DNA from: an uncultured Gammaproteobacteria bacterium
Lineage (GTDB): Bacteria; Patescibacteriota; Patescibacteriia; Magasanikbacterales; UBA922
DNA length: 64,000 nucleotides
Assembly (NCBI GenBank): GCA_964345045.1
Contig: CAYFPM010000003.1
Location: forward strand, 134,038 to 198,037
Reading direction: 5' to 3'
Position 1 is the first letter of the stretch, and each line of letters opens with the position of its first letter. A program made the position numbers and the translations under genes. The notes beneath the pieces are model-generated. The model did not search any database, was not told the origin of the DNA, and saw only the letters and a list, made by a program, of their open reading frames with translations. Shown here one piece after another: positions 20,470-63,907 of the stretch.

Positions 20470-20925
20470 TTAGTTATTGTTTACACTTTGTAACAAATCT
20501 TGTATTTGTTGAGTAGATATTTGAGAAATAATATCATTTAGCTGCAAACCTTGATTCAAAGCTGATCCAGACCCAACTCCGGATAACAAATTTCCATACT
20601 GTTCCCAAAAATTTTCTACAATTGGCGGTAAATAGTAAATAGCCAACAAAAGTGGAATTATAATAATTGCTAAACGCAAATAACTACCAAAAAGCATCCA
20701 GCCCATTCTTCTTTTAATTTTTCTATTTTGTTCGTAGATAACCTGAGACCACTTTATATTTTTTTCTATCAATTCTTGTAGGGTCTCATTTTTTGCTGTT
20801 GCTACAGTTTTGGGTTTTGTTGGCTCTTTTTCATCGTCATTTACTTCTACAGGCTTGTTAAACTCTATTTTGTTTTTAGATTTTTTATCCATTTCTGGAT
20901 TTTTTTCTTCTTTTTTCATAGTCAA
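20470..20925 (-). CDS. Hypothetical membrane protein (151 aa)
   Basis: Lys/Glu-rich N-terminus, one central TM (LRLAIIIIPLLLAIYYL). No motif. Confidence 0.45.
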   Translation of the reverse strand: MTMKKEEKNPEMDKKSKNKIEFNKPVEVNDDEKEPTKPKTVATAKNETLQELIEKNIKWSQVIYEQNRKIKRRMGWMLFGSYLRLAIIIIPLLLAIYYLPPIVENFWEQYGNLLSGVGSGSALNQGLQLNDIISQISTQQIQDLLQSVNNN

Positions 20926-23064: not shown

Positions 23065-23090
23065 CCAAAAAACCACTGTTTATCAGTGGC
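23065..23090 (-). terminator. Intrinsic terminator after ftsA (CCACTG-ATAAA-CAGTGG + T-run on the minus strand)
   Basis: Reverse complement reads GGCCACTGATAAACAGTGGTTTTTTGG immediately downstream of the ftsA stop. Confidence 0.5.
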
Positions 23091-23110
23091 CGACTCTAAC
23101 AAAAAAATCA

Positions 23111-24376
23111 TTATGGCATTAGCCACTCCCCTGCTTTTCTCAATTGATTCAAGATTTTTTTAGTACTAATTGGATTTTTGGAACTTGGTCTAGCAATCCC
23201 AGCTCTAGGATTATCGTTTAGTTTGGCTCCCCATTTTACCAAGCCAATCGCACTAGTAAATGATATATCATTAGATTGAGACGTAATACTAGGAATATCA
23301 ATTGGGTATCCAATAGAAGCTGGCAATTTTAATACGTCTTTAGAAAGATCAATTAAACCTCCAATTTTTGCTCCACCTCCTGTAAATACTATACCGGCAG
23401 GGAGAAGCCCACTTTTCCCTATTTTTATAAGTTCATCATTTATTTTTTCTAGTATCTCTGTAGCTCTAGCTTCTACAATTTGTGAAATATAATTTCTAGT
23501 AACAACTTCTTCTGATCCAAATGGGGACAAATCTACTTTCTCTCTTTTTGGAATATGAGAAGAAACACAATAACCATGCTCAATTTTTATTTTTTCTGCT
23601 ACATCTATAGAGGTACGCAAACCAATAGCCAAATCATTGGTAATATGTTCCGAACCAATTGGTAAAACGGCTGTATGGATAACATCACCAGATTCATAAA
23701 CTACCAAACTACTGGTAGAACCGCCTATATTTACCACCCCCACACCAATTTCTTTTTGTCGGCTAGTAACAACAGCATCGGCAGTAGCCAAGGCAGACAA
23801 GACAATATCATCTATATCAATTCCTGTACGATAAACTGATTTACTAACATTTTTTAGATGAGAAGAAATTCCATGAATAATTTGTGTATCCACTTCCAAT
23901 CTTAAACCTGTCATGCCCACCGGATCTTTTATACCATGTTGACCGTCTACAGTATAACTGCGAGGCATTACATGTAACATATCATAATTTAATGGTACAG
24001 CAATAGTTCTGGCTGCTTCTATTGCTCTTTCCACATCTTCTGGAGAAATTTCTCCATCAGCTTTGGCAACCGAAATAACTCCCCGACTATTTTCACTTAT
24101 TATATCTGTACCGGTAATTCCCACCCAGGTATTTTCAATTGGTACTCCAACTAGTCTTTCTATTTTTTCTAGAGCATGAGACACAGAAGAAATAGCTTCT
24201 TCTATACTAACAACAACCCCTTTTTGGATACCATAAGAAGGCACTTCTGCAGCACCAACTATTTGTAAACTAGCTCTACCATCTGCTTCGTATGTCAATT
24301 GACCTACAGCCACTCTAATAGCGGTAGAGCCAATATCTAGCCCCGTGATCATTTCTGTTTTTTTTCTTGCTACCAT
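23111..24376 (-). CDS. ftsA: Cell division protein FtsA
   Basis: Actin-like ATPase: ITGLDIGSTAIRVAVGQ..., ..VVNIGGSTSSLVVYESG.., ..GIVFTGGGAKIGGL... Placed upstream of ftsZ. Confidence 0.9.
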   Translation of the reverse strand: MVARKKTEMITGLDIGSTAIRVAVGQLTYEADGRASLQIVGAAEVPSYGIQKGVVVSIEEAISSVSHALEKIERLVGVPIENTWVGITGTDIISENSRGVISVAKADGEISPEDVERAIEAARTIAVPLNYDMLHVMPRSYTVDGQHGIKDPVGMTGLRLEVDTQIIHGISSHLKNVSKSVYRTGIDIDDIVLSALATADAVVTSRQKEIGVGVVNIGGSTSSLVVYESGDVIHTAVLPIGSEHITNDLAIGLRTSIDVAEKIKIEHGYCVSSHIPKREKVDLSPFGSEEVVTRNYISQIVEARATEILEKINDELIKIGKSGLLPAGIVFTGGGAKIGGLIDLSKDVLKLPASIGYPIDIPSITSQSNDISFTSAIGLVKWGAKLNDNPRAGIARPSSKNPISTKKILNQLRKAGEWLMP

Positions 24377-24732
24377 AAATTACTAAAATAAGGCCAAAAA
24401 ATCAGTACCCCCACAATTACAGCTCCAATAGATACTAATAGTACTGTGGCTGCCATTATATCTTTTATCACTCCAATCTGAATATGTAGCCTTGGCTTCA
24501 ATATATCTACAAACTTTTCTATAGCACTATTGATCATTTCCAAGGACAAAACAGCCAAAATCAATAATAACAGTACTATCATCTCACTTTTCTTGATACT
24601 TAAAGATAGCATAAAAAAAACAACAAGAAAAGCGAAAAATAGCTGGATACGAAAATTCTTCTCGTGCTTATAAACAAAAGAGATACCACGAAAAGCATCT
24701 TTAAAACTTTGTTTTAATTGTCTTTTTTTCAT
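24370..24732 (-). CDS. dgkA: Diacylglycerol/undecaprenol kinase DgkA family
   Basis: 120 aa, 3 TM, DAGK_prokar-like ..NFRIQLFFAFLVV...EMINSAIE... Confidence 0.75.
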   Translation of the reverse strand: MKKRQLKQSFKDAFRGISFVYKHEKNFRIQLFFAFLVVFFMLSLSIKKSEMIVLLLLILAVLSLEMINSAIEKFVDILKPRLHIQIGVIKDIMAATVLLVSIGAVIVGVLIFWPYFSNLW

Positions 24733-25184
24733 AAAAAAATATTAGAACCTTTAACATCTTTTACAAATTTGGCTAACAATTTTTCTTGTAATGGCAACAT
24801 TACCTTGGCGTCTCTTTTTTTTATGTGGTCATAACCTGCCAAGTGTAAAATTCCATGAACCAACATTCTAACTAATTCTTCTTCAAATTTTATTTTGTTT
24901 TCTTTGGCTTGTTTTTTTATTTGTGGGATTGATATAAATATATCTCCCCAATCTTTGTTATCAAATGCATCTCCTTCTTGCATAGCAAAAGCCAAAACAT
25001 CCGTAGTTTTGTCTTTGTTCCTATATGTTCTGTTCAAAGTTCTCATTCTCTTGTCCCCCACAAAATGTACACTAATCTCGGCTTCTTTGTGGTGTAAAGA
25101 TTGTAAAACCTTGTTTACTATATTTTCTACCCTTCTTTTGGCAATACCAACCTTGTCTATCGTTTGTAGAACATAGCATGGCAT
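24729..25184 (-). CDS. ybeY: rRNA maturation endoribonuclease YbeY
   Basis: Signature HGILHLAGYDH zinc-binding motif. 151 aa. Confidence 0.9.
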   Translation of the reverse strand: MPCYVLQTIDKVGIAKRRVENIVNKVLQSLHHKEAEISVHFVGDKRMRTLNRTYRNKDKTTDVLAFAMQEGDAFDNKDWGDIFISIPQIKKQAKENKIKFEEELVRMLVHGILHLAGYDHIKKRDAKVMLPLQEKLLAKFVKDVKGSNIFL

Positions 25185-25194
25185 AGGAATAACT

Positions 25195-26370
25195 TTATTC
25201 TATACTAGTAGTAACCGAATCTGCTGGCAAATTTGTTTCTAAATTTTCCAAATTAGTATCTTCTTGAAAAGAAGGACCCGTAAAAATATTTTCTCCTGTT
25301 GTACCTGGCAGGATAGCTTGTTCTGGCAAAGCCTCTCCCCCCAATTGCGGTCTAAAACTTTGATAAAACATTTGAAAAACTCTACGAAATGGGATGGTTT
25401 CGGCAGTACTACCAGGTTGATAAATAAGTACAAAAACTTTGTCTCCGGTAGTAACATAAGCTACCAAGTTATCTACTCTTCTTACCCCTTCTATACTAAA
25501 TCTATTTACAAATTTTGTTAAATCAGAAAAAGATTCTCCAGAAATATTATTGGCAAACCAACTAGCAAAATCTTCGTTTATCTCTTTGTAAAAAGTTCTT
25601 ATTTCTATATAGTCCCCGGTAATACTACTAAACAAAACATGTTTACCATCGGCATCTACTTCGGCGGCTTCCCAATTTAATGGATAGTAAACCCTATAGC
25701 CAAATGGTTGACTGATATATTCTCTAATTAAGCCTGAGTCAATTAGTCTAACTGGAGCAAAACCTCTTGGGTTGTACAAGTTTACCACTTCTTGACCATC
25801 GTAATAACCATCTTGGTCTGAATCCCAGATTCCACTGTCGGTATCAAATATTTCTTCTTCCAAATCAGACAAAGTATCGCTATCCAAATCAACGCTATCT
25901 GCCAAAATTATTCTAGGAAAAGTTAGTGGCCTCTCTGGAATAGTTGGAGTACTAGTAGGTGCTTCTAATTCTGGTTCTTCCACAATTGGTTCTTCTATTA
26001 TTGGCTCTGGTTCTATTATTGGTTCTGGTGAAACATCTTCTATTACAACTCTTTCGGTTGGAGTTGTTGTCTCGGTAGCACTATAAAAAAAGAAATACCA
26101 AGTACCTGCCCCTACAGCTAATAATAAAACTAATATTACCAAAAACATCCAAAGTCTACTTGGTTTGGAAACTGGAGTAGATTTTGACGCCATTGGTTTT
26201 TTCTTCTTGGGGATTTCTTTGATCTTTACTGGTTTTTCTTTTTTTTGTTTTGGCTTGTGATAAACCAAGGGGTCTTTACCACCATAAAAATCTTCTGGGA
26301 TAGTAGCCAGTTTTATGTTTTTTTCTTTAGGAGTTTTATCTGTTTTTTTCTCTTTCTTCTTACCAAACAT
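25195..26370 (-). CDS. Membrane protein with a thrombospondin-type-3-like Ca-binding Asp-rich motif (paralog 1 of 3), plus an extra C-terminal domain
   Basis: K-rich N-terminus, TM (LWMFLVILVLLLAVGAGTWYFFF), acidic repeats and DLDSDTLSDLEEEIFDTDSGIWDSDQDGYYDGQEVVNLYNPRG. The same motif family appears in the two adjacent genes. Confidence 0.6.
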   Translation of the reverse strand: MFGKKKEKKTDKTPKEKNIKLATIPEDFYGGKDPLVYHKPKQKKEKPVKIKEIPKKKKPMASKSTPVSKPSRLWMFLVILVLLLAVGAGTWYFFFYSATETTTPTERVVIEDVSPEPIIEPEPIIEEPIVEEPELEAPTSTPTIPERPLTFPRIILADSVDLDSDTLSDLEEEIFDTDSGIWDSDQDGYYDGQEVVNLYNPRGFAPVRLIDSGLIREYISQPFGYRVYYPLNWEAAEVDADGKHVLFSSITGDYIEIRTFYKEINEDFASWFANNISGESFSDLTKFVNRFSIEGVRRVDNLVAYVTTGDKVFVLIYQPGSTAETIPFRRVFQMFYQSFRPQLGGEALPEQAILPGTTGENIFTGPSFQEDTNLENLETNLPADSVTTSIE

Positions 26371-26375
26371 AAATA

Positions 26376-27389
26376 CTAATTTGTAAAGCCGGTAATGTCT
26401 TCTTCTGTTGGAGGTTCAAAGATTCTACCGTCACCAGCTGGGTTATAACCATTTTTCACTTCTACCCCATCCATATAAGTATCGCCATCCGTATCTGGAT
26501 TCAAGGGATCTGTCTTCCAAATAATTACTTCGTCTCCATCGCTTAGCTCATCGCCATCGGTATCCCAGTTGGCTGGGTCTGTCCCCAAAATTTGTTCTCT
26601 AGCATTGTCGAGATTGTCACTATCGGCATCAATTGCTTCTCCAAACAAAACAGAATCATCAAAACTAACTTCTTCGGTGTCTCTACCTGTTGTATCTATA
26701 TCGCCGACAGTTTGCCCTGGGGTAACGCCATCTTCAATAGTAGTTGTGCCGTTTGGCAAAATAGTTGTATCTTCCACAACAGGAGGAGTATCGTCAAAGT
26801 CAACTCCGCTACCACGAGGAGAGGTCTCGAGAAAATTATTTTGATTGGTAGTAGGCAGTGGAGTACTGGCTGGCTCACTTGTAAAAAAATAACTATAGGC
26901 GAACCAACCCAAACCTAAAATCCCTACTATAACCAAAATAACCACAACAAAAATCATTATCCCTTTGGCAGATTTAGGAGATTTTATATTGTTTTCCATT
27001 CCTTTCATAGGACTCATATCCTTTGGAGGAATATGCATAGCCGGAGCAGCTGGAGCACCTGGAGCCGGAGTTCCAGCCATGCTAGGCGTAGCCATTGGTT
27101 CGGCCATAGTAGGAGCAGAGGATTCTGGTCTATCTCCCCCTACTGGAGTAAGTCTGCCTGTTTCCATAGCAGTTGGGATATTGGCAGCAGCATTTTCTGC
27201 TTCAGCACTTGGAGGGGGATTAAAAGGAGCTGCTGCCGAAGACGAAGGTGTCGCAGCCGGGGCAGGTTCTTGGTTAGGAGGCGTTCCTCCACCAACGTCG
27301 GGGGTACCAGCAAAAATATCTTCTGGTTCTCCCAAAGGAAGATTGCTTGGTGGAACTCCACCAGGAGTTTGGTTGTTATCGTCAAACAT
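26376..27389 (-). CDS. Pro/Ala-rich membrane protein with a C-terminal TSP3-like Ca-binding motif (paralog 2 of 3)
   Basis: P/A-rich N-terminal half, TM (IMIFVVVILVIVGILGLGWFAY), and C-terminal DTDGDELSDGDEVIIWKTDPLNPDTDGDTYMDGVEVKNGYNPAGDG. Confidence 0.6.
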   Translation of the reverse strand: MFDDNNQTPGGVPPSNLPLGEPEDIFAGTPDVGGGTPPNQEPAPAATPSSSAAAPFNPPPSAEAENAAANIPTAMETGRLTPVGGDRPESSAPTMAEPMATPSMAGTPAPGAPAAPAMHIPPKDMSPMKGMENNIKSPKSAKGIMIFVVVILVIVGILGLGWFAYSYFFTSEPASTPLPTTNQNNFLETSPRGSGVDFDDTPPVVEDTTILPNGTTTIEDGVTPGQTVGDIDTTGRDTEEVSFDDSVLFGEAIDADSDNLDNAREQILGTDPANWDTDGDELSDGDEVIIWKTDPLNPDTDGDTYMDGVEVKNGYNPAGDGRIFEPPTEEDITGFTN

Positions 27390-27402
27390 AAGCTTGTAAT
27401 TA

Positions 27403-27855
27403 TTATTGATCTAATTTTCCTTCTCCATTTGGATTATAACCGCCATAGACTTCAAAACCATCGGCATAACCATCGCCATCTGTATCTGGGTTATTAGGAT
27501 CAGTCCCCCAAATATTTATTTCCAAATTATCCGACAAACCATCGGCGTCACTATCGAATTCATTGCTACTGGTTCCCAAATTTTCTTCTTCTTGATTAGA
27601 AATACCATCACCATCAAAGTCATCTTCGCTCACGCCAGAAAAAATTATTTCTTGTGGTTCTTCTTGACTAGAAATTAATTCATTTGGCTCAAGCGCTCTT
27701 TGTTTTTGTCTAAACCTAGAAAAAGAGAAAATAAAAACCAAAATTACAATAGAAACAACAAACAAAACCAAGGCCTTTTTTCTATTTTTATTTGGATCAA
27801 CCAATTCGTAATCTTCTATCTTTCTTTCTTCTAGTGGAAGATTCTCATTTTCCAT
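27403..27855 (-). CDS. Small membrane protein with a C-terminal TSP3-like Ca-binding motif (paralog 3 of 3)
   Basis: TM (ALVLFVVSIVILVFIFSF), then FDGDGISNQEEENLGTSSNEFDSDADGLSDNLEINIWGTDPNNPDTDGDGYADGFEVYGGYNPNGEG. Confidence 0.6.
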   Translation of the reverse strand: MENENLPLEERKIEDYELVDPNKNRKKALVLFVVSIVILVFIFSFSRFRQKQRALEPNELISSQEEPQEIIFSGVSEDDFDGDGISNQEEENLGTSSNEFDSDADGLSDNLEINIWGTDPNNPDTDGDGYADGFEVYGGYNPNGEGKLDQ

Positions 27856-27968
27856 ACATTTTGTTTATTATACCATTAAAACTCTTATTATAAAAAATCT
27901 CTCAATCCAACCTCCAACAACTACAACCTACCCACTACCCACTACTCACTACTCACTAAATACCTATT

Positions 27969-39900: not shown

Positions 39901-41546
39901 CCGGCTCTTGTAACTCTAATTACACTGTCACTATTATTTGGCAAAGCAGCGTCGTTTGGTGGGACTTCTACTATTATCCAACTATCTGTCCAAACATCTT
40001 CGGTTCCACATTGAGCCAAACTAGCCGGTACCCACTGATCCGGAGATCCATCGGTATCAGTATCTATTCCAAATTCTACAGTACCATTGGCGTCACCAAA
40101 AAATTGACCAAGAATTGTAACCCAGTTGCCACCAGCGCCATCCCAAAGATTTACATCGGTAATAAGTGGGACAGCTGCACATTGGCCAGTAGTTTGCCCT
40201 GGTGGAATTACACATCTACCAGAAGCACAATCAGCATTTTGAGTACAGCCAGCATTTTGTCTACATCCAGGATTTGTACCAAAACCAGTACCAAACTGAC
40301 AAGATTGATCTACGACAGTAAATTGAAAAGTTTGGCTGCTAAGATTACCATCTATATCGTAAACTTCTAACAAACCATCGTAAGTAACATTGGTAGCAGC
40401 ATTGGCTGCTAAAACTAGTTGATAATTATAAGTATAAGGATTGGAGGCAGTTGCTGCAGAGCCATTTGAAATAAGTGGGGCATCGTAATTTTCTATTACA
40501 GTTCCCCCACCTTGTGGAGTTAATCTAACATGAGCATACCCAATACCATTGTCGTCCGACAAATCTGCCCCGATTAAATATGTTTGCCCCCTTGGCAAAG
40601 CTGGAGCGCCACCATACTGAACTCCATTGTATGTAACAGTATTGTTTGGGATAGTCGGAACCACCGAATCCATTACTACATTAGTGTTTACTTGGAAGGT
40701 AGTAGCTGTTGGGAAATTGCCACATTGGGTAGTAGTTTGCAAAGAATTTCCTCCAGCCGATTGCAGATTTGGTTGTACGCTAATGCTGTAATTACCGGCA
40801 GACAAAGTAGCATTGATAGGCGCAGCTTCTAGCACTGTTCTAGCTGTATCTAAATATGCAAAATTAAATTCACTATTAACATTGGCTCCATCACGCAAAA
40901 TAGTTAGAACACTATCTGCAGCTGTAGCAGCCGACACAGATTGACTAAAAATTGCCCGGACTGAAAAATTATTTATGTCCACAGTTCCATTGTTTGGCGC
41001 GCTTGGAGTAATCGTTCTTACTACGAATTGTTGGCTACTATTGCCAGTACACGGGTTGAATCCTCCACCAGGCCCTCCTCCGGCTCCACACTGAGTAGGA
41101 TTGGCAGCCGCATAAGCAGGGTCACTACAATTGGCCACTACCCCCGTACCTGTAGCTGCTCCCAACTGAGTCAGTACAAATTGAGTTATAGCAAAAGCAG
41201 ATAAGATTATGACCAAACCAATACTGCCATTTATCATTATTTTCTTGGCTTGAGAAACTTTTTCTTCGTTACCTCCGGCGGTCATATATGTATAGCCCCC
41301 GTAAATCATGATTACCAAAGCAATAATCCCTAGTAATCCAAGAGCTACTCGAATAATTCTGGCAATCGTTACTCGGATATCTTGGCCTCCTAGACCTGTA
41401 CTTTGACTAACTCTACCCAAACCAAAAACATTGTTGGTCTGTGTTTGAGCCAAAACATCATTGGCAAAAAGAAAACCTAGACCAACAAAAAAGGTTAGCC
41501 CCAAAAAGATAAATATTTTTTTTAATTTTATACTTTTGTTTATCAT
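27969..41546 (-). CDS. Giant (4,525 aa) multidomain surface protein: N-terminal T4SS-pilin-like (VirB2/TrbC-topology) membrane module, Ig-like regions, LamG/ConA-like lectin domain, Cys-rich CG(N/D)G..GE(E/D)CD repeats, six-blade BNR/Asp-box propeller, Cys-rich C-terminus
   Basis: Single uninterrupted ORF. N-term: signal/anchor + helix(ALGLLGIIALVIMIYGGYTYM)-TAGGNEEK-helix(GSIGLVIILSAFAITQFVL). LamG-like ..RWHHVALSLDRDGEMRLYIDGLL.. (~34,350..34,900). Cys-rich repeats such as CGNGVVEAGEDCD, CGNGLIEFGEECE, CGDGRVDPATEQCDDGARNG, YCGDGVVQPQFEECDDGNN (~29,700..36,400). Asp-box repeats TNDGGVTW, TIDGGSTW, TIDGGRNW, TTDSGNTW, TKDGGTSW, TTDGGLSW (~30,250..30,880). Confidence 0.85.
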   Translation of the reverse strand: MINKSIKLKKIFIFLGLTFFVGLGFLFANDVLAQTQTNNVFGLGRVSQSTGLGGQDIRVTIARIIRVALGLLGIIALVIMIYGGYTYMTAGGNEEKVSQAKKIMINGSIGLVIILSAFAITQFVLTQLGAATGTGVVANCSDPAYAAANPTQCGAGGGPGGGFNPCTGNSSQQFVVRTITPSAPNNGTVDINNFSVRAIFSQSVSAATAADSVLTILRDGANVNSEFNFAYLDTARTVLEAAPINATLSAGNYSISVQPNLQSAGGNSLQTTTQCGNFPTATTFQVNTNVVMDSVVPTIPNNTVTYNGVQYGGAPALPRGQTYLIGADLSDDNGIGYAHVRLTPQGGGTVIENYDAPLISNGSAATASNPYTYNYQLVLAANAATNVTYDGLLEVYDIDGNLSSQTFQFTVVDQSCQFGTGFGTNPGCRQNAGCTQNADCASGRCVIPPGQTTGQCAAVPLITDVNLWDGAGGNWVTILGQFFGDANGTVEFGIDTDTDGSPDQWVPASLAQCGTEDVWTDSWIIVEVPPNDAALPNNSDSVIRVTRAGGGNLSDTTADGRGSRSGPRQGFFRKDNSLVRPSLCSVRVSPGQTTPVGATAAIAGTNVTAIGKSFGPASGAQLNFGGVQSQVSSWSATQIDATIPANIQPGRVGVIVTSASGEDSNGIPFQILTTLQNQTPVIEAINPSSSTPGSFVTITGSRFGQSPGTIYLAQGTTTCPGAGCTVANLPTVCGSLAWQDTQIIMELPANLAIGGYNVIVESGDTNIQSVPNATSVINVNNGAPLPSICAVNPNSGPAPLLPVGGVNPLTITGVNFSNSPTVRFWGRNSLTANPLTNTELNTWLSTSGNQITVANSLTAGDTVTTPIPVQNGYSMQTGPIVVTAGSGNNLQVSNSVEYTVTDCRDIPSNQIPAGQRCCTEGPSAGVFRPASFSCPGEVRDGGYVWRFTTGRIASVPLVLEACNQERWIGNRAVAFPSPTPWDGWQQGDDVCLNRDIAVMFNMDMDPNSFAGNVSLFTCAEASNGRIDCSGGNKIDISNQVNLNYTSRVLTIRPAPLNNTNNLQPDTWYRVELGSSIQSQEVITEFGSSRIVNQPLQATRNCGSGTAYCFEFKTGGPNNMCALTGAGIEPPAHVTDRLGTVLDPAYPVSDNQPLYYKLWGRGDQTCAVLNVDGLGWNWRVAAATNPLASAVTVSIAPGNGYRDSRATARAFRSTAPQSVQIEASLPGGVTAGTGNSTVSDFAALAGVPLDVPVGGNPIVIPDPSNIYTFDYTNSATMTIRMVLNNDDPVSVANGWQFGAGAASAQKVKMVAAKGDYSVRLQTFGNRGQNQRRRDFRFFKNDTPNFSMTVITSRIQNWSQALPTNIGNGNWVIPSSLDVNTGQSIQRGYNNTTPSSNYHIAQDANNPLVWYIPDTEFFDEFEIQITQNGTNWRMWWRNVTQNSPLYMVGEGNAGATTVRNIGGDILIGMLSANPVGVPDNYYLDGRLTAFTLEKESRSQLQNSNIGTVVSDLTVDLGTPRAIEFWPNCSEACANATLGAKFNRDMDDRRYQNGLNVYTCTDRANCTSNTVNRNNRVPFTVDQQLSNRKELHARPTAGAVLQPDTWYYAELTGAILSVASVNAAGGITSFGPSLTPTNWIFKTKATGEICVADNARISPDPFTALVIGQKTKYTVIPRTNPDSCNVEGQDLNPWSFGWQWNVADTNIATVSNFSTAALPKNNCTNGCLPGGSDIDSATHQSNPSSICGNGVVEAGEDCDVAANVPGTNTAEIPGISCNLSCLRPGNGTVGTGANQCGNGIVEPLFGEECDPAAPNAQNCSATCTNQGTPSFDTFAGVPGTFCGGDGLLEAGEDCEISGAGAESSEYCSNSCVHLGSQLSQAWCDDPVNASLNIGNLTAGASLECTDASSVCGNGLIEFGEECEVVSSGGSNVVVVYDPTQPGRGIVTNAPISSCSNRCLLQNICNTDVPDVGAGRLRCNDITDEDCNVDCTLSGSSVSRYSTASVCGDGVVGLGETSWCEYTAVEIANLQSLGQNPIQVVEAIGQGNTNPQTGNQETTVDATAIATLDATSQSVITLPLADQITGTGNYALQCGFTEFAEPRTVNVSGVNTFRFNDCPNATDGVGTNSCCYNRPTRSSSYPADGQGFANAATPALAAPVCRNTAISITFDTVLDEDTLNRNLFLAKGYTQSQNVGNSSNADNAYINNLSDVGGVTTDTGIVSSAYYFDGLVDRLQSLPDTATPNSVVPAYDFATADFTVHGWIKTSSTAQIETIASQGYSTNRWVLDLQNGVPNGQICQNGQTPACATVTANSNLADDRWHHVALSLDRDGEMRLYIDGLLEDSTNIAAYNNNPINGVANSATYSLNIGANVNVSSAGAVNYTSLYNGLLDEVTIEKRVIRSGEVQALADKTTAGQNQGNCPAGEFDVTNLVNRTLALNDIATDLAPKSLWHKLWQGIKTFFARLWFGVVHASGTNDPNVVVWCAGDVTFETNATPAYDTVGNVVGTDGILSINSVLEENTSYAVVLRGGVSGIKDLRGVGIGSPDSNVTRLDDSILFRTGTDICKLNSVGILPNKYIFSAPNTSTVFVANAVSTNDQSIVSIPGQYEWSWDWQPQGDQIFSIPSTVPPATCGNGVLDVGEDCDGPLLRATQCSAIPGRNYTGGNLSCNVTTCQYDVSACTPSLSPTDTSIIKIASNNLEGSRTASANATVTFDSDTQTNQAGEVFSGKTDLTALFCERPWPPVAYFPFEEGVPFGANVNNDGVDAAGVFDGTALPAANVAAGTGGVNGQYFNFGTSYCADAGASGDTSDDLPYLKPFVFGNLVTAGTCSRTNTSCFADTDCSGQLNTCQGALASTSQIQRTGLLKQMLFFNDTNEDVVGIQIFQNTGRDSVRQWYEKQPELGFVPSDFRDVRIAGYEAITDGDNYYVNALNQSSGGGIFNNVYLFSINQNASESTREVFDQLLNGLEFNINISDVGYCLANTVSAATTRVGETGALPISSVQCADNFDCKDVDGTPLPNTNGICSSSKTKFIRDWERLHSIREAQQKLSSLRDASGNINVPTLSSGSYIPGYSTSKWPSWGLLGSQVGGLKTDPVNKWSSCGVCAQGISTSCVSNLDCPGVGNTCTALGVCSQTVPQGCGSDADCPGAGNTCSLIDNQTCWDEQSSSFVCPRDSNIFEYSAVSNQNYTVHAQLEYFTSQSNIVQEFIDPNSFSTNRVCSAPFQVQSPFSAVCGDGVLNPATEQCDPPGRTQLGTTGITGVATAGVCAYQGTNQSQICNTDVDCSISLFENPVPGSSGSIVSGRPLFNPDVSVEMGSGQTVCQYLNAVMYPDSSQSNTPPAVLPAVSCNTSADCVNILVNQIATGRANYSTFHPGLNSGTNVAKVPRNPASKLDFTCAPLFQAKAFKDISKAQCVGGTIQNPVIGACPAQQVAQAVCDSQCQLQYGSCQAGGVCGDGRVDPATEQCDDGARNGTYGNCASDCRGPHPQYCGNGGSPDIVGGRAVEYCEIANFQGINAKGFCSVERDGFGVQTSGTNQALSAVHFVDEQNGWAGGNNSTLLRTNDGGVTWQTQNLPTIANTHNVNSIKFVDVNTGWLLDSNNNLVWRTIDGGSTWVQSNTTFPRLGSGTFTLPNIYFDMNFVDRNNGWVSASGNRIFRTIDGGRNWTQGNALPNNFNSIHFVSATEGWAASGGSTTDNNNQTYNAAGFIYRTTDSGNTWNLSYQYYSPGQPGNSHLMRGVYFVDSQDGWAVGDSGIILSTKDGGTSWQIQQSPVNTNLQKVYFVDNFDGYIIDVNNNILKTTDGGLSWVRANTNVGSTITLNDLHASGVGAWTVGSQGTILKTGLRLCAVDSDCGANNTCLAGDTPTYHIDQQNSCAFDCQGPGGYCGDGVVQPQFEECDDGNNINNDACSNLCLVRAAAQSSAIISQSVGCGNGVTDPGEACDLGSQNGVACIPSYNESCTYCSNSCDAVLTVDAAGYCGNRELEIITTDSAGQPVYEACEVDGGFILIDPDVTKPDAQRYVRTQCTGSNYNQPTNFFTVNVGQRACQNSCTTYIDNCIPCGSKNISQGGVAPSLAILNVIEDGAAINATAWATATNAYLRVREAGFYVARGEMNLQLYSGQSTQSYTTQKRFLNTGNIVDGGLESNALCSGTYGVEFNNSVTQTVQGSVYNYPVNSDSQTVGHEILVSPAVAPGTIRVVVRWTEAENNEGVTFGGALYNESFSNDPNPNRRQPITYGFATSIIPNGICSRIAQDTAGYWVPSGCSPSLTNGGNGAVWVHSRNNLQKTFSQTFTIDTAELVDARPYAFFVESIGQISSVPIINFENSNLQVEIYESRVGQNPGLSIYKPTRNFNITTAAGTSSNSLARYWQVFNLSATNSGYTITPVEQIKSGFNEVLSQLIGSTSQGSTSPNTVVACTAADWNCQPFPTSCPVSGTRSRVCTLINTSCANASAVQPPLSQSCTPDCRAGNLVGCVNQSDCESVAGGVWNTVSGQSSCVVPNSVASGGACSVDAACQTGLSCVNNLCS

Positions 41547-41550
41547 GCTT

Positions 41551-43638
41551 TTAGATTACAGGACTTAGCTGTTGCAGTCTGTTTATACACGTTTGAATAT
41601 CTGGTTGGATTAGGTCTCCTGGACTAACGGCTTGTACACAAGCAGTGTCTGTGTCTCTTACTCCATTTACAGCAGCACAATTAGCATTACAATTTACTAC
41701 ACCGGTTACAGGATCTGTGTTACAAACACATTGTGGAGAAGTCCCTCCTGGCCCCACCGGACCACGACCAGGATAAACACAATTTTGGTTAACACTTTTT
41801 ACCGTACTCGGAATACTAGTAAAGTAATAAGCATTAATTCCATTTGGTTTGAATAATCTATGATCAACTATAACTTGTGTTTTACCGTTTATTAGATTTC
41901 CTCTGGCTCTATAAGCTAGTGGTGGAACTGGTGGTTGAGTGTTGGCTGGGATACCATACTCGGTAATAGCGATACCAGAGAGAGTTCCCATCCACATAGG
42001 ATGACTAAAGTTAATTTGTACAGGCACGTCGTCTGGAACATTTTGTCCATCTATTGCAGGGCTAATAGTTTCTATATTTGGGGCAGTTCTATCTATAGTA
42101 TTTTCTACTACAAAATCCCAAAGATAATTATCCGGAGCGTCTTCGTTTGGTGGGCTGGTCAAAGCACCGATTCTTTTGAAAGTATCGCTTGGCATAGTTG
42201 GTTTGCCATCTGGGATTCCATCGGCGTTTCCATCCAAAACATTGTCGGCAAAATCAACCACACCACTAAATGGGATTGCTTCGAAACTACCACTACCTGG
42301 ATTCAACAGATTACCGGTACGAATAAGAATGTTGTGATTTTGGTTGGAACAGTTTGGATTGGCAGCTGGACAAGTGATTTGTAAACAATACATGGGATCA
42401 CCACAACTATTGGCTCCGCAAGCAATGTCTGGCACAAATTCTACTGTTTGGTAAGAGTTACTTACTTTCCATTCTCCGGTTACATTTTGATCACCAAAAA
42501 TTATATTATAAAAACCTGGATTTTGTGCCAAACCAGTTACAGAAATTGGATTAATCGGTTCGTCGAAATTGATTTGAACAATAGTATTTCTAGGTACAGT
42601 AGCTCCAAGCGGTGGATAAACACTAGAAACAATTGGAGGATCTGTATCTAAAAAAGTACCGGTTTCAAATATCCAAACATATCTGCCTCCCCTATCGTTT
42701 ACAAAAGCACTGGTACTGCCATCGGCCTTCAAAATATTACCTGTAAGTTCTACTTGGTATTCTTCTATATCCACATCACTACCCAGTGGGCTAAGTGGCC
42801 TAAACACAAAAGTTAGATAATCACTAGTATTTGGTCCTTCTGGAGTAGACAAAGCAATCATGTCGAGTGCTCCCCCAGGATTGCCAGTAGCTTTGTCGAG
42901 AAGAGCTACTACTACGTTTCTAGTATCTATATGATCACAATCATTGTTCCAATCAAAATTCGGTTGACCAGTATTAATACAATCTCCAAAGATATTATTG
43001 TTGTTGCTGTCCAAAATTACACTGGCCGGATCAATTGGCTCGTTAAAAGTAACCGTAATGTTGGTATTTCTGGCTACGTCTTTTTGGTCACGAAATGGAT
43101 AATGGTCTCTAATTACTCTACCTAGCGATCCACTGCCGGCAAAAGATTGAGCAGAAGGAGCACCAAGACTGGCCGAACCTACACCGGTAGTAGCTCCGGT
43201 AGCAGCGGCTAATCTGGTAATAAGAAATTGCACGATAGCAAAAGCAGATAAGATTATGGCCAAACCAATAGTAGCGTTTATAATTATTTTTTTACCGGTA
43301 GCGATTTTTTCTTCGTTACCTCCGGCTGTCATTATGGTATAACCGGCATAAATAATAAGTACAAGCGCTATTATTCCAAGCAAGCCCAAAGCAGCTCTAA
43401 TTATCCTGGCGATAACTAGTCTAATATCTTCTTGTCCCAAACCAGTGGCAGGGGCTACTTGATCCAAACCAAATACATTGGTAGATCCACCAGGGACAGG
43501 CGGGCTAGCCGGAGCAGTCTGAGCCAAAGCAACATCCGCAAACATTAAAAATGAAACAAAAAAAACTGCTACCAAAACAAAAATTTGCATGGCAACAGTC
43601 TTTTTGGAATTTTTTTTCATGCGAATCCACGGAAGCAT
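41551..43638 (-). CDS. 695-aa surface protein, paralogous over its N-terminal ~110 aa to the giant protein (same T4SS-pilin-like two-helix module), divergent Ig-like extracellular region
   Basis: N-terminal ..TNVFGLDQVAPATGLGQEDIRLVIARIIRAALGLLGIIALVLIIYAGYTIMTAGGNEEKIATGKKIIINATIGLAIILSAFAIVQFLITRLAAATG is ~75% identical to the corresponding region of 27969..41546. It sits 4 nt upstream of the giant gene on the same strand. Confidence 0.8.
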   Translation of the reverse strand: MLPWIRMKKNSKKTVAMQIFVLVAVFFVSFLMFADVALAQTAPASPPVPGGSTNVFGLDQVAPATGLGQEDIRLVIARIIRAALGLLGIIALVLIIYAGYTIMTAGGNEEKIATGKKIIINATIGLAIILSAFAIVQFLITRLAAATGATTGVGSASLGAPSAQSFAGSGSLGRVIRDHYPFRDQKDVARNTNITVTFNEPIDPASVILDSNNNNIFGDCINTGQPNFDWNNDCDHIDTRNVVVALLDKATGNPGGALDMIALSTPEGPNTSDYLTFVFRPLSPLGSDVDIEEYQVELTGNILKADGSTSAFVNDRGGRYVWIFETGTFLDTDPPIVSSVYPPLGATVPRNTIVQINFDEPINPISVTGLAQNPGFYNIIFGDQNVTGEWKVSNSYQTVEFVPDIACGANSCGDPMYCLQITCPAANPNCSNQNHNILIRTGNLLNPGSGSFEAIPFSGVVDFADNVLDGNADGIPDGKPTMPSDTFKRIGALTSPPNEDAPDNYLWDFVVENTIDRTAPNIETISPAIDGQNVPDDVPVQINFSHPMWMGTLSGIAITEYGIPANTQPPVPPLAYRARGNLINGKTQVIVDHRLFKPNGINAYYFTSIPSTVKSVNQNCVYPGRGPVGPGGTSPQCVCNTDPVTGVVNCNANCAAVNGVRDTDTACVQAVSPGDLIQPDIQTCINRLQQLSPVI

Positions 43639-56361: not shown

Positions 56362-58359
56362 TTAGGTATTTTCTTCTGCTTCTGGAATAGCAATACTCCC
56401 ATCGGGATTGAAGATATTTTGCTCTTCTGGAGCACAACTAGTACTGCCATCTGGTAATTCTTGGCATTTGTTGAGCTCTGCTACCCCTACCAAACAAATT
56501 TCTGGCAGTGGCCGGTAGTAACTTTCAAAAACTTGCTCTTCTTTGGTGCCATCTGGTAATTCTCGTACATAGGTAAAAGCGGCTTCGGCTCCAGTATAGG
56601 CGTGTTGGCACTCTCTTTCTCCAGGAGCTAGTTTGGTGGTCTCTATAATCTTGGTCTCTCCATGCGGAATCCAACGTTTTACAATTGGTTTTTCATAATA
56701 ACCTTCTCTACCATCACTAGTCCCCCACAAAATAAAATTGAGTCGACTATTTGCCAAATCCATTTCTGTTTGGATCAAAATATAATTATCTGTATCATTT
56801 TTAAACTTAAAATCCGGAGCCGGTTCGTAAATAGTAGCATCAGTTCCTGGCAAACCATTTTGCAAATCATTGTAATAACCCACTACCAAAGAATGATTCC
56901 TGCGCTGGGTAATTGGCAAGCCACTATTCATAGCCATACGAAACAGAGTAGTTCCAATTTGGCACAGCCCTCCACCAATCTCTGGTTTTATTTCATCTCC
57001 TTTTATTACCAATTCTGGCAAATAACCCCCTTCTAGAGTATATGGCTGAGTATGTTCTATGGTAGAAAATTCTTCTCCCGGCTTTACCAAAATTCCATTC
57101 AATTTGTTAACTGCGTTTCTAATATTTTTTATTCTATTCGATGGACTACCAGAAAAATCCGATACCCCGATTCCCAAAATTTCGGTAATTCCCAAATCAT
57201 TGGCCTCGCCAGTGCTGACACTAGGTTCTACCAAATCTACTACAACAGTAATATTTTTGCCCACACCTTCGTTGTGACTAGCTCTTTGGTAGATTACCTC
57301 ATTTATTAATTTGGAAGTTTCTTCTATATTTAATTTTATACCTGGTCTTGATCCTTGAAATTCTTTGACCTCTTTATTTTGTTCTATTTCAAACTTGGCA
57401 TCTCGGGCTTCTCTATCTATTTTATTTCCTACTACAGAATTAAGATAAATCTCCAAATCATCGTGGTCAAAACCAAAAGCATATTCGCCTTCTGTTTTCT
57501 CTTGGACTTCCAACCAATCTTTGAAAATATTTTTTTTCAAAACCCAACTTTCAGAAAAACCGGTCTGAGGATCTTTGTAAGACAAATTTATAGAACCCAA
57601 AGCAAAAATCTTTGGTAAGCTTTTCAAAACTTGATCCAAATTTTTTGAATCTACTTTTGGATTGGTTGTTTTTTGTTCTATCTCCACTACAGCTGGTTGC
57701 AAGATAGACCAACTATTTCTTATCTCCGACAAAGCTTCTTCGTAAGCAAATTCCAATCCAGGGGTAGAACTAACTAGATTGTATTCCAAAGGATCTGTGC
57801 TAATAATATCCACCCCAGCATCCACTGCCGGAGTTTCGTACTCTCCAAATTTGTCTGCCAATTCTTGTTTCAAGGCTTCTTCATTTATATATACGTTTTG
57901 CAATACCAAGTCTTTGTCTTGTAAAAAAACACCTGAAAAGATATTAAATCCTGTGATTATTGGATTTTTACTTTTGCCTAGTGTGATTAATCTATCAACT
58001 TCTTTTTCTATGTCCAAACTAGCAAATTCTACAACAGTACCTTCTGTAGCTACCACCGGATATATGAGGATATCTTGTTTTTTTCCATTATAAGCAAAAT
58101 TAAATTGCAAACCTTCGTTAGTCAATTTTTCACTCATGTCTTGCAAAAATCTGGTCAACTCTTCTTTTTCCATTCCCCCAATCGACAAACTTCCAATATA
58201 TATGCCCGGATTAACTTTTTCCTTGTAACTAGAAGCATAGAAAAAAGAACCACCAAATACCAACAAAAATAATACTGCCGTAAAAATGGCAAAAAATCCA
58301 AAAAACTTCCAATCTCTATTGGACTTTTTTACTCTTTCTTTTATAAAATTTTCATCCAT
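56362..58359 (-). CDS. VanW-family protein (membrane-anchored, with N-terminal accessory domains)
   Basis: N-terminal TM (FFGFFAIFTAVLFLLVFGGSFFY). C-terminal VanW-like core ..GGGLCQIGTTLFRMAMNSGLPITQRRNHS... 665 aa. Confidence 0.72.
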   Translation of the reverse strand: MDENFIKERVKKSNRDWKFFGFFAIFTAVLFLLVFGGSFFYASSYKEKVNPGIYIGSLSIGGMEKEELTRFLQDMSEKLTNEGLQFNFAYNGKKQDILIYPVVATEGTVVEFASLDIEKEVDRLITLGKSKNPIITGFNIFSGVFLQDKDLVLQNVYINEEALKQELADKFGEYETPAVDAGVDIISTDPLEYNLVSSTPGLEFAYEEALSEIRNSWSILQPAVVEIEQKTTNPKVDSKNLDQVLKSLPKIFALGSINLSYKDPQTGFSESWVLKKNIFKDWLEVQEKTEGEYAFGFDHDDLEIYLNSVVGNKIDREARDAKFEIEQNKEVKEFQGSRPGIKLNIEETSKLINEVIYQRASHNEGVGKNITVVVDLVEPSVSTGEANDLGITEILGIGVSDFSGSPSNRIKNIRNAVNKLNGILVKPGEEFSTIEHTQPYTLEGGYLPELVIKGDEIKPEIGGGLCQIGTTLFRMAMNSGLPITQRRNHSLVVGYYNDLQNGLPGTDATIYEPAPDFKFKNDTDNYILIQTEMDLANSRLNFILWGTSDGREGYYEKPIVKRWIPHGETKIIETTKLAPGERECQHAYTGAEAAFTYVRELPDGTKEEQVFESYYRPLPEICLVGVAELNKCQELPDGSTSCAPEEQNIFNPDGSIAIPEAEENT

Positions 58360-58361
58360 AC

Positions 58362-58883
58362 TTAATCTTCTACCACTGTAACCGGTATTCTGGCGTTACT
58401 TTGTTTTTTGGGAATTTTTATAATCAAAATACCATTTTTATAATCGGCTCTGGCCAAATCTCCTTTTACATCTACCGGCAAAACTACTGTTCTAGAAAAA
58501 GGTCCCCAAAAACATTCTTCGTGAAAACATTCTGTTTTTTCATTCAATTCCAGAGGTCTTTTTCTTGTACCTCTTATAGTCAAAAGATCGTTGTGTACAT
58601 ACACTTCTATTTTTTCCGAATCAGCTCCGGCCATGGTAGAGACAACAATTACGTTTTCTTTGTCTTCGGCAACATCTACAGACAATTGACCTTCTTCTAC
58701 AGGTTCGTTCCAATTTGAATTTTGTGATGACAAAACCGAAGGGCTAGAGTCGCCTTCTTTCATAGAGTCTAATATTAACTCAAAAACATCCGGGTCTGAA
58801 TTCTTTTCTTGGAACATATACCAAAAGTTAGCAATGCTTTTATGTTTTTTTGCTTTATTGCTTTCTTGACCTAAGTATAGCAA
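58362..58883 (-). CDS. Hsp20/alpha-crystallin family small heat-shock protein
   Basis: ACD core (..LSVDVAEDKENVIVVSTMAGADSEKIEVYVHNDLLTIRGTRK...ADYKNGILIIKIPKK..). The start is possibly the internal Met (MFQEKNS..). Confidence 0.82.
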   Translation of the reverse strand: MLYLGQESNKAKKHKSIANFWYMFQEKNSDPDVFELILDSMKEGDSSPSVLSSQNSNWNEPVEEGQLSVDVAEDKENVIVVSTMAGADSEKIEVYVHNDLLTIRGTRKRPLELNEKTECFHEECFWGPFSRTVVLPVDVKGDLARADYKNGILIIKIPKKQSNARIPVTVVED

Positions 58884-62789: not shown

Positions 62790-63476
62790 TTAGGTTGTCT
62801 CAATTTGAAGATCTCTTATGTCTCCCAGTTGTTCGGCAAAAGCAATGTCGGGATTATAAGTTGAATAATATAATTCTATCAAACTTTGGGTATCCATTCT
62901 AACTACGTTCAATCCAATCCCCTGCAAACCACTATCTACCTGCCTTATTCTAGCTTCTAGATCTTCTTTTCTTTGCATAAATCTTTCTGTTTTTAGCCGA
63001 ACTGTTAAAGCGGGTTTTAGAATTTCTTGAAACCTGGCAAAAAAAGATTTTTTCTTGTTGCTAATAGGATCGTATGGAACAACTACATAAAATTTCTTAG
63101 TCATAATTTGTCCAATATCTACCAATTCTTGAACAAAAGCACGGTAGTCGGCAATTTGGATACGCAATAATTCATTTTGCATAGTTTTTTCTGTCTCGGC
63201 CAATTTGTCCAGATACGGTTGCATTTGCAATCTTCTTGATTGCACTACTATCTGAATTGGAAAATCTAGTGAATTCAAAAATCCAACATAAGAAGAAATC
63301 AAAGCATTTTGTTCATCTTCGGATTTTAGAGCAAAGTTAATACTGGAAACCATCAAAACTGCGCGAAGCGTCCCATCTTTTAGCACCACTGTATTTTCTT
63401 TTACTTCTGCTATCGGCAAGTGGGTTTGGGTAGCCGGTTTTTTGCTTTTGGTTTTTTTTACTTTTTTATCTTTCAT
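62790..63476 (-). CDS. Hypothetical protein (~228 aa) upstream of the VirB4-family ATPase; T4SS-associated by position
   Basis: The ORF-track ORF 62790..63641 overlaps the upstream gene by 163 nt. The internal Met (MKDKKVKKTKSKK..., ~63476) abuts the upstream stop instead. Basic N-terminus, then a globular domain. Confidence 0.45.
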   Translation of the reverse strand: MKDKKVKKTKSKKPATQTHLPIAEVKENTVVLKDGTLRAVLMVSSINFALKSEDEQNALISSYVGFLNSLDFPIQIVVQSRRLQMQPYLDKLAETEKTMQNELLRIQIADYRAFVQELVDIGQIMTKKFYVVVPYDPISNKKKSFFARFQEILKPALTVRLKTERFMQRKEDLEARIRQVDSGLQGIGLNVVRMDTQSLIELYYSTYNPDIAFAEQLGDIRDLQIETT

Positions 63477-63478
63477 AA

Positions 63479-63907
63479 TTATTCTTCTCCTTGGTAATAC
63501 CCCCCGGTATTTACAATCAAAGATAAATCTTGAATTCTTTTTCTTTTGGCTCTTTTTACTGGGATTTGTTCTATTTCTTTTATCTCTGGAGCTTTTTTTC
63601 TTAGGTAGTCCAAATCTTTGTTGGAATAATCTTTGCGCCAAATTCGTAAACTTGGTTTTTTGGCTGTTTGAAATACGTTTAACAAAAAGTAATGAAAGTC
63701 TTGCCCTTTAACTTTTACAAAAGCAAAAGTCAAACTAAGTCCACCAACTACTGCCAAAACGGTAGCAAAGAGTGCCAAATCTCCGTAGCGAAAAGCCAAA
63801 AAGCAAGTTAGACCACCGGCCAACAAAATCAAAAATTGGCGAACTGTAATCGGTCCAAATATTTTGGTTTCTACATCTATAAATTGTGGCACTACAAATT
63901 GTTGCAT
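63479..63907 (-). CDS. Small two-TM membrane protein, PrgI/TcpE/VirB3-like candidate
   Basis: 142 aa. Two adjacent TM helices (FLILLAGGLTCFLAFRY / LALFATVLAVVGGLSLTFAFV) near the N-terminus and a basic cytoplasmic tail. Immediately upstream of the VirB4-like operon, as in Gram-positive T4SS loci. Confidence 0.4.
   Translation of the reverse strand: MQQFVVPQFIDVETKIFGPITVRQFLILLAGGLTCFLAFRYGDLALFATVLAVVGGLSLTFAFVKVKGQDFHYFLLNVFQTAKKPSLRIWRKDYSNKDLDYLRKKAPEIKEIEQIPVKRAKRKRIQDLSLIVNTGGYYQGEE

Follow-up and report, generated by a model that had tools for sequence, protein, structure and literature searches.

Three families of small membrane proteins with bacterial thrombospondin type 3 modules in a conserved patescibacterial gene cluster with pilin-domain giant proteins and ftsA/ftsZ

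Patescibacteria, or the candidate phyla radiation (CPR), are believed to spend their lives attached to other cells, and their surface machinery is mostly unannotated. In a 64,000-nucleotide (nt) stretch of an uncultured magasanikbacterial genome (contig CAYFPM010000003.1 of assembly GCA_964345045.1, positions 134,038 to 198,037; hereafter, the window), three consecutive genes, which we call A, B, and C, encode small single-pass membrane proteins carrying two or three tandem repeats of the bacterial thrombospondin type 3 (TSP3) kind. Judged by their sequences, A, B, and C are three old and distinct ortholog families, and the order of the cluster in which they lie, between genes for very large surface proteins and the cell division genes ftsA and ftsZ, is kept across about 150 uncultured genomes of Magasanikbacteria, Uhrbacteria, and relatives. 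The reading that we favor, in which we place about half of our confidence, is that the trio are calcium-stiffened, membrane-proximal partners of pilin-anchored giant proteins.

Calls of open reading frames (ORFs) confirm the arrangement given by the first-pass annotation of the window: three co-oriented minus-strand genes, for proteins of 150, 337, and 391 amino acids (aa), directly 3′ of a giant gene (Table 1). Read 5′ to 3′ on the minus strand, the order is a 695-aa gene, the 4525-aa giant gene, A, B, C, ybeY, dgkA, ftsA, ftsZ, and nrdR. The gaps, said to range from 5 to 113 nt, are indeed 113 nt from the giant gene to A, 13 nt from A to B, and 5 nt from B to C; ybeY follows C after 10 nt, and ybeY/dgkA and dgkA/ftsA overlap. 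Each protein has the single transmembrane (TM) helix ascribed to it, in the form of one strongly hydrophobic segment (A, residues 24-50; B, 137-170; C, 66-98; Kyte-Doolittle). The window has a G+C content of 39%, and the metagenome-assembled genomes most closely related to it bear the names Candidatus Magasanikbacteria or Patescibacteria. As a side observation, a collection of 15 billion proteins includes one 100% identical to B (P0207) but none with the exact sequence of A or C; gene calls of the same three lengths (150, 337, and 391 aa) nonetheless occur in the run assemblies ERR2281802 and ERR2281803, and the mismatch with the collection is probably a matter of indexing.

The six frames of the window contain exactly eight copies of a strict form of the repeat motif, D.D.D[x]..[DN]..E, and all eight fall in A, B, and C (three, three, and two, respectively), where they form tandem DxDxDGxxDxxE units spaced by 22 to 23 residues. 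Since none lies elsewhere in the window, the repeats are not generic acidic low complexity. That the genes might be an artifact, either acidic low-complexity ORFs or chance matches to a motif, could be argued from the compositional bias of parts of B and C (Pro/Ala-rich and Lys-rich linkers); we give this next to no credence and regard it as already refuted, given the confinement of the motif to A, B, and C, the hundreds of full-length homologs, the invariant columns in register, the Pfam E values of 3.9e-14 and 8.2e-9, and the confident AlphaFold2 (AF2) models.

The E values just cited come from the Pfam family TSP3_bac (PF18884; gathering cutoff, 25 bits), which matches three stretches of A (52.6 bits, E = 3.9e-14) and also B (35.6 bits, E = 8.2e-9). 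C gives no match to this family at E ≤ 0.1, and weak matches are found in only 4/51 of its orthologs; in an hhalign comparison, the C family (51 proteins) matches, in register, the two final repeats of the A family (32 proteins) with a probability of 98.9% (E = 3.5e-17), indicating that C bears the same module in diverged form. The peptides quoted by the first-pass annotation are found in A, B, and C as claimed, and the long motif drawn from them runs from the tail of the second-last repeat (GTDPxNP) through the final repeat, which has a conserved cap (DTDGDGYxDGxEVxxGYNPxG). The repeat motif recurs in all three genes as stated, with three repeats each in A and B but only two in C, where a globular domain of ~140 aa follows them.

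Lack of a conserved register across homologs had been named beforehand as one outcome that would refute the first-pass reading; the register is conserved, and the acidic ligand columns proved invariant in both the A and the C families. Invariant positions include D101, D103, D105, E112, D124, D126, G127, D128, G129, D132, and E135 in 32 A-family members and D161, D163, D165, D169, E171, E172, D183, D185, D187, D191, G192, and E194 in 51 C-family members. The loops DSDADGLSDNLE and DTDGDGYADGFE in A, DTDGDELSDGDE in B, and DSDQDGYYDGQE in C fit the 12-residue EF-loop consensus, with ligands at positions 1, 3, 5, and 12 and Gly at position 6 (D1, D3, D5, G6, E12). AF2 models residues 78-148 of A as three units of a loop and a short helix (pLDDT of 97-98), with helices after the loops at residues 87-93, 109-116, and 132-137 and no entering helix; a Pfam scan returned no EF-hand match for A, B, or C, and there are no cysteines in the sequences of the three modules. 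In the absence of both entering helix and cysteine, the modules are neither canonical EF-hands nor the disulfide-stabilized type known from thrombospondin and OmpA-linked proteins.

The only solved relative found by sequence is region B of Staphylococcus aureus Bap (EF-hand 2/3 loops, PDB 7C7R and 7C7U; E = 7e-4), and the same protein (7c7u) is the best structural match to the predicted module of A, with an rmsd of 0.9 Å over 43 columns at 46% identity and a Foldseek E value of only 0.1, the match being short. The DxDxDG loops of Bap mediate the response of that protein to extracellular calcium, as found by mutagenesis (PMC7785521). There, the loops reside inside a large wall-anchored adhesin and control amyloid-type aggregation, whereas here the ectodomain of a small membrane protein consists of little else than the module. 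The TSP3-like, calcium-binding character proposed at first pass is backed by sequence (the Pfam matches of A and B and the profile alignment of C with A) and by predicted structure (the superposition on the Bap loops); from the loop consensus and the structural match to calcium-responsive loops, we infer that the loops of all three proteins bind calcium. The accompanying comparison with OmpA-like proteins is not apt, as Pfam finds no OmpA domain at E ≤ 0.1 and the modules are free of cysteine.

The three proteins had also been called paralogous, a term that fits the repeat module (~45-70 aa) and not the full-length proteins, because pairwise BLASTP similarity is restricted to the module: A and B are 54% identical over 70 aa (E = 5e-21), A and C 50% over 48 aa (E = 7e-8), and B and C 40% over 43 aa (E = 1e-8). 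Whole-protein paralogy is ruled out on these grounds, B and C being otherwise only loosely alike in their N-terminal peptides. A recent tandem duplication is likewise ruled out, as each gene belongs to a separate ortholog family whose length, number of repeats (3/3/2), and extra features are its own and are constant across about 80 species-level genomes.

Protein A is the plainest of the three: a short N-terminus leads into a single TM or signal-anchor helix, and the protein closes with three TSP3 repeats (...GYNPNGEGKLDQ). Its orthologs measure 115-190 aa, for the most part consist of a short signal-anchor followed by three repeats, and share the C-terminal end GYNPxGxGKL. Basic residues flank the TM segment of A on both sides, and one homolog has a lipobox-like LLTGC. 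For B and C, a Lys/Arg-rich flank on the N-terminal side of the TM segment suggests that the N-terminus faces the cytoplasm and the C-terminus the outside.

Protein B starts with a conserved peptide, predicted to be cytoplasmic, and continues with a Pro/Ala-rich linker of ~110 aa, the TM segment, an acidic/Thr-rich linker, and three TSP3 repeats (...GYNPAGDGRIFEPPT). Searches returned 975 homologs at E ≤ 1e-3. The 79 positional orthologs share the N-terminal consensus MFDDq....P.NLP.gEPeDiF, the Pro-rich linker, the TM segment, and three repeats ending in GYnP.GpGklFeppt, and the N-terminal peptide is kept even in the distant loci L090, L091, and L092.

Protein C has a similar beginning, with a putative cytoplasmic peptide, a Lys-rich linker, and the TM helix, beyond which a Thr/Pro/Glu-rich linker leads to two TSP3 repeats and a PsbP-like domain; an LPEQ motif and a low-complexity tail complete the protein. 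Its homologs include 191 full-length proteins (38-51% identity) that have no precomputed Pfam domain, and a profile search retrieved 774 cluster representatives (from 50% identity clusters) at E ≤ 1e-30. The N-terminal consensus of the family is MFGxKK...IPxxFYGGxDP, with P25, F28, G30, and P34 invariant among 51 sequences, and the peptide motif is found in 133/162 C-like ORFs. EPEDIFAG in B and IPEDFYGG in C are alike and are the sole such N-terminal matches among the ORFs of the window. Two further observations concern these peptides and their surroundings. The FtsZ C-terminal peptide of this genome (21518-21700, minus strand) loosely resembles both IPEDFYGGKDP of C and NLPLGEPEDIFAG of B, and the C-like protein of locus L090 (9367-11046) has, between its N-terminal peptide (MPDEFF) and its TM segment, a Lys/Glu-rich, coiled-coil-like insert of ~250 aa on the presumed cytoplasmic side.

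Residues 205-345 of C are predicted to adopt the alpha-beta-alpha sandwich fold of PsbP. In Foldseek searches of the PDB, the modeled domain matches CyanoP (2xb3; E = 1.6e-5, TM-score by target of 0.52) best, followed by plant PsbP, BT_1490, Tsi3, and SciW, and the top CyanoP/PsbP matches span E values of 1.6e-5 to 1e-3 and TM-scores by target of 0.45-0.54. The PsbP families of Pfam (PF01789 and PF18933) give no match to C of the window; among the 51 orthologs, 7 match PsbP weakly (best E = 0.0036), and the ortholog in locus L175 reaches 24.3 bits on PsbP_2 against a cutoff of 27. The solved proteins of PsbP/Mog1-type fold that match this domain (PsbP, Tsi3, and SciW) bind other proteins. In four loci (L121, L124, L158, and L168), there are two tandem C-like genes (TSP3 plus PsbP-like), with no separate A- or B-type gene called by our script, so the set may be remodeled by duplication of C.

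Both large proteins encoded upstream begin with a VirB2-like T4SS_pilin domain (PF18895), which is followed by Big_5 repeats in the 695-aa protein and accompanied by Big_5, Laminin_G_3, and BNR/YCF48-like repeats in the 4525-aa protein. Their pilin hairpins (at 43222-43431 and 41175-41372, respectively, both on the minus strand) are nearly identical and include ARIIRxALGLLGIIALVxxIYxGYTxMTAGGNEEK; the pilin domain is thereby fused to very large surface proteins of Ig-like/lectin-like character. Wherever the N-termini are visible in related loci, a protein of 640-900 aa is paired with the giant, and both start with the same VirB2-like T4SS_pilin domain; pairs of the 695-aa/giant type also occur in L091, L092, and L175. 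In the window, a gene for a VirB4-like ATPase (TraG P-loop, AAA_10, DUF87; 60898-62757, minus strand) lies some 19 kb upstream of these two genes; beside it, a 283-aa ORF (62790-63641, minus strand) weakly matches the N-terminal part of TraC, and the two could represent a split or two-gene VirB4.

We examined the neighborhood of the trio in 80 species-representative genomes, obtained with the C profile, and in 80 more divergent metagenome loci, obtained with an alignment of the C ectodomain; pooled counts refer to 163 loci, some of which are duplicates from different collections. Because the sequence of most loci breaks off within the giant gene, short of its N-terminus, and a home-made pilin HMM found only 4 ORFs, giant genes were recognized by BLASTP to the giant protein of the window. 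In those loci of the 80 species genomes that are long enough, the order giant-A-B-C-YbeY-DgkA-FtsA-FtsZ-NrdR is near universal, and the same order is found in a locus whose TSP3 protein bears the name Candidatus Uhrbacteria, in some further loci, and in the 80 divergent metagenome loci. The linkage to giant genes on which the first-pass annotation based its idea of accessory or anchoring subunits extends to related genomes, with a giant-like ORF upstream in 93/94 loci that have at least 5 kb of upstream sequence; the second outcome named as refuting, a lack of synteny with giant genes in relatives, is thus not what is seen. At least one single-pass TSP3 gene immediately precedes C in 122/126 loci, the number of such genes per locus being two in 88, one in 20, and none in 3. 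The median gap from the giant gene to the first TSP3 gene is 12 nt, which may be an underestimate, as are possibly all gaps in this comparison, since ORFs were begun at the first start codon. These lineages are well diverged, FtsA across the loci being only 41-66% identical to that of the window.

In the arrangement that we favor, A, B, and C would be single-pass envelope proteins, N-terminus in and C-terminus out, whose cysteine-free modules of two to three calcium loops (bacterial TSP3/EF-loop type) are held just outside the membrane, where calcium would fold and stiffen them. A would contribute an anchor and a module only; B would add a PEDIF-type peptide that a long Pro-rich tether holds in the cytoplasm, and C a cytoplasmic IPxxFYGG peptide together with an extracellular, PsbP-like, protein-binding domain. 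The trio would most likely be produced together with the 695-aa and 4525-aa surface proteins, themselves anchored by the VirB2-like pilin hairpin, and would form a membrane-proximal, calcium-dependent base that holds or organizes the giant proteins, with the peptides of B and C linking the complex to a partner in the cytoplasm.

Several observations weigh against this arrangement. In the window, the widest spacing of the block is the 113 nt between the giant gene and A. It contains a promoter-like site (a good sigma-70-like match whose -10 element is extended), and the consensus scan finds no terminator-like site outside coding sequence on the same strand until the hairpin just past ftsA. On the other side, the block is just as tight: ybeY starts a median of 2 nt after C, YbeY directly follows C in 125/134 loci, and FtsA lies downstream in 118/119. 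With both flanks conserved nearly everywhere, synteny alone cannot decide whether the trio is tied to the giants or to ybeY/ftsA, and as a discriminator between the two it failed in all but three variant loci (L090, L091, and L176). Nor is the module exclusive to this cluster. With a GYSP or GYDP cap, it precedes YkuD L,D-transpeptidase domains in other Patescibacteria (P0143, P0156, and ~12 more), showing it to be a general extracytoplasmic building block that is also used on peptidoglycan enzymes, and for a stand-alone TSP3 homolog (L009), 8.8 kb of upstream and 10 kb of downstream sequence contain no giant gene.

Much of this would suit division or envelope-growth tethers that belong to the ybeY-dgkA-ftsA unit, with the peptides of B and C binding FtsA or FtsZ, the calcium modules engaging the wall zone, and the giants being mere neighbors, a role that we consider unlikely. 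From A to ftsA, the genes are at first 13, 5, and 10 nt apart and overlap thereafter, with the promoter-like site before A and a terminator-like site only after ftsA; FtsA is a nearly constant downstream neighbor, and the module also occurs on peptidoglycan L,D-transpeptidases. A short conserved peptide, a long Pro- or Lys-rich linker, and a TM segment recall tethers of the ZipA/FtsN type, and the peptides of B and C resemble the FtsZ C-terminal peptide. That last likeness is loose, however, and the promoter and terminator are consensus matches only, to which we attach low weight (21 promoter-like sites were found versus 17.5 expected). In most other genomes, the giant gene and the first TSP3 gene are only ~12 nt apart.

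The informative loci are the three variants. In L091, pilin-domain genes, a B-like gene, and a C-like gene stand together in this order, YbeY and DgkA are absent, and the set is separated from ftsA by ~7 kb containing clpP, secDF, a Wzy-like gene, and a prepilin peptidase gene. In L090, the order is lepB-hisS-rpsU, a B-like gene, a C-like gene, and ybeY, after which comes not ftsA but a gene for a Big_5 protein of >1245 aa with a weak pilin-domain match (E = 0.005); here, the large gene is relocated yet still adjacent to B-C-ybeY. In L176 (6481-10354), a 117-aa lipoprotein-like TSP3 protein is encoded 26 nt after a 1164-aa FG-GAP surface protein, in an unrelated neighborhood with no ybeY or ftsA. 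All three loci favor a tie to the giants, and the first two speak against division tethers. The FG-GAP protein of L176 itself shows a weak match to the eukaryote-type TSP_3 family.

Alternatively, A, B, and C could be generic calcium-binding envelope proteins with no specific partner, retained in a slowly rearranging chromosomal backbone (lepB-hisS ... ybeY-dgkA-ftsA-ftsZ-nrdR) in which the giants are adjacent by ancestry. We regard this as possible, if on the unlikely side. The conservation does encompass the whole backbone, including unrelated housekeeping genes (nrdR and pyruvate kinase), and the window and L090 alike have lepB-hisS ahead of the cluster; the module, moreover, is widespread in many CPR protein contexts, and the L009 homolog manages without a giant gene nearby. 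Against this, lineages as diverged as these (41-66% identity in FtsA) have usually seen their gene order erode outside operons, and the order downstream of nrdR does differ among loci. The fixed 3/3/2 repeats, like the invariant cytoplasmic peptides, suggest roles that are specific and under constraint, and the association with large surface proteins persists in the three variant or independent contexts just described.

The tie to the giants and the tie to division could also be combined, with B and C serving as transmembrane couplers whose peptides bind FtsA or FtsZ while their calcium modules and the PsbP-like domain hold the giants outside. We think this improbable. Were it true, the giant surface apparatus would be placed or inherited in step with division, and there would be a direct physical link from the divisome to a host-contact structure in ultra-small episymbiotic bacteria.

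Among known systems, the closest in repeat are bacterial TSP3 proteins (PF18884) such as CglD and MtsD of Myxococcus, which have the same 22-23-residue DxDxDGxxDxxE...TDP repeat as A, B, and C. The likeness ends with the repeat: against the NCBIfam models of these proteins (NF033765 and NF047639, with cutoffs of 400/800 bits), only the repeats match, with 36 versus 800 and 29 versus 400 bits, and membership is not supported. Unlike CglD and MtsD, the three proteins here are short and single-pass, have only two or three repeats and neither a VWA nor any other CglD domain, and possess the cap E-V-x-x-G-Y-N-P-x-G and, in B and C, the conserved peptides of the predicted cytoplasmic side. With the type 3 repeats of eukaryotic thrombospondin and COMP and with OmpA-linked TSP3, they share the Asp-rich chemistry of the DxDxDG calcium loop and a tandem layout. 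The OmpA-linked repeats contain intra-repeat disulfides (Dai et al. 2017, as cited in 10.1101/2023.11.21.568195), and as the modules here are free of cysteine, the disulfide-dependent variant does not apply; assignment to the eukaryotic TSP_3 (PF02412) or OmpA type is not supported, there being no match to either at E ≤ 0.1.

The modeled fold of residues 205-345 of C is shared with PsbP/CyanoP (PF01789 and PF18933), Tsi3, and the SciW/DUF1795 chaperones. C differs from PsbP in scoring under the Pfam thresholds, in belonging to a nonphotosynthetic organism, and in placing the domain behind a TM helix and two TSP3 repeats. Purely as an analogy for a possible mechanism, the modules may also be likened to cellulosome dockerins, which likewise consist of small duplicated ~22-residue units of a calcium loop and a helix and dock, in a calcium-dependent way, on large extracellular assemblies. 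A dockerin identity is not supported, as PF00404 gives no match at E ≤ 0.1; no cohesin-like partner was identified, although cohesin was not itself searched for. In the giant proteins of Omnitrophota, TSP3 and dockerin repeats are internal (10.1101/2023.11.21.568195), whereas here the repeats are on separate small membrane proteins.

The pilin domain at the start of both upstream proteins is that of the VirB2-like pilins (PF18895) of CPR type IV secretion systems (T4SS); the VirB4-like gene of the window lies ~19 kb upstream of the pair. The survey of these systems, in the passages concerned, treats PF18895 proteins as small pilins and pilin arrays and makes no mention of giant pilin fusions or of TSP3 neighbors (10.1101/2025.01.22.634366). 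The CPR Pam pilus system (10.64898/2026.03.03.709456) is unrelated: its description includes no thrombospondin, PF18895, VirB2, TrbC, or giant proteins, and calcium figures only as a medium ingredient. Literature searches on Patescibacteria with thrombospondin, on PF18884, and on Magasanikbacteria or Uhrbacteria surface proteins yielded nothing on A, B, or C. The motif itself, being part of a described Pfam family, is not new; what appear to be undescribed are the peptide-linker-TM-TSP3x3 and peptide-TM-TSP3x2-PsbP-like architectures, the fixed A/B/C set, and its cluster with pilin giants and ftsA/ftsZ.

Three "hypothetical proteins" become, by these analyses, defined families with predicted folds, set in a fixed cluster with pilin-anchored giants and ftsA/ftsZ throughout a class-level lineage. 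If the trio is a calcium-dependent base, modules of ~70 aa and a PsbP-like domain of ~140 aa would offer expressible handles on otherwise intractable proteins of 4500 aa, attachment should depend on calcium, and FtsA and FtsZ would be direct test partners for the cytoplasmic peptides. Should the trio be no more than a syntenic neighbor of the giants, it is an ordinary instance of a known repeat.

Table 1. Positions of the genes, protein segments, and putative signals in the window
Feature	Coordinates	Strand	Basis
Gene A, 150 aa	27403..27855	-	ORF; Pfam TSP3_bac; AF2 model; same-position ortholog in most related loci
TM helix of A, residues 24-50	27706..27786	-	Kyte-Doolittle maximum 2.97; AF2 helix 23-53
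TSP3 module of A, residues 79-148, three repeats	27412..27621	-	Pfam, motif scan, AF2, Bap superposition
Gene B, 337 aa	26376..27389	-	ORF; Pfam TSP3_bac; family alignment
N-terminal peptide of B (predicted cytoplasmic), NLPLGEPEDIFAG, residues 16-28	27306..27344	-	Family consensus
TM segment of B, within residues 137-170	26880..26981	-	Kyte-Doolittle maximum 3.05; Lys-rich N-flank
TSP3 module of B, residues 254-323, three repeats	26421..26630	-	Pfam, BLASTP, motif scan
Gene C, 391 aa	25195..26370	-	ORF; full-length homologs; profile search; AF2 model
N-terminal peptide of C (predicted cytoplasmic), IPEDFYGGKDP, residues 24-34	26269..26301	-	Conserved in family alignment
TM helix of C, residues 72-98	26077..26157	-	Hydropathy; AF2 helix 72-98
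TSP3 module of C, residues 161-203, two repeats	25762..25890	-	BLASTP to A/B; hhalign to A family; invariant Asp/Glu columns
Predicted PsbP-like alpha/beta domain of C, residues 205-345	25336..25758	-	AF2 pLDDT >90; Foldseek; weak Pfam in orthologs
Giant gene, 4525 aa	27969..41546	-	Upstream context
695-aa gene, upstream partner of giant gene	41551..43638	-	T4SS_pilin + Big_5
ybeY (24729-25184), dgkA (24370-24732), ftsA (23111-24376)	23111..25184	-	Downstream context
Promoter-like site, TTTATA-16 nt-TATAAT with upstream TG	27867..27894	-	Consensus scan; in 113-nt gap before A
Terminator-like hairpin with T-run just past ftsA	23071..23091	-	Consensus scan

Two other regions of the window deserve mention. 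A 665-aa protein (56362-58359, minus strand) has VanW and PG_binding_4 domains, which mark it as wall associated, and its immediate upstream neighbor on the coding strand is an Hsp20 gene (58362-58883). A 151-aa ORF (20470-20925, minus strand) with no Pfam match is located between nrdR and the gene for pyruvate kinase, and an unannotated ORF of similar size occupies the same site in several related loci.

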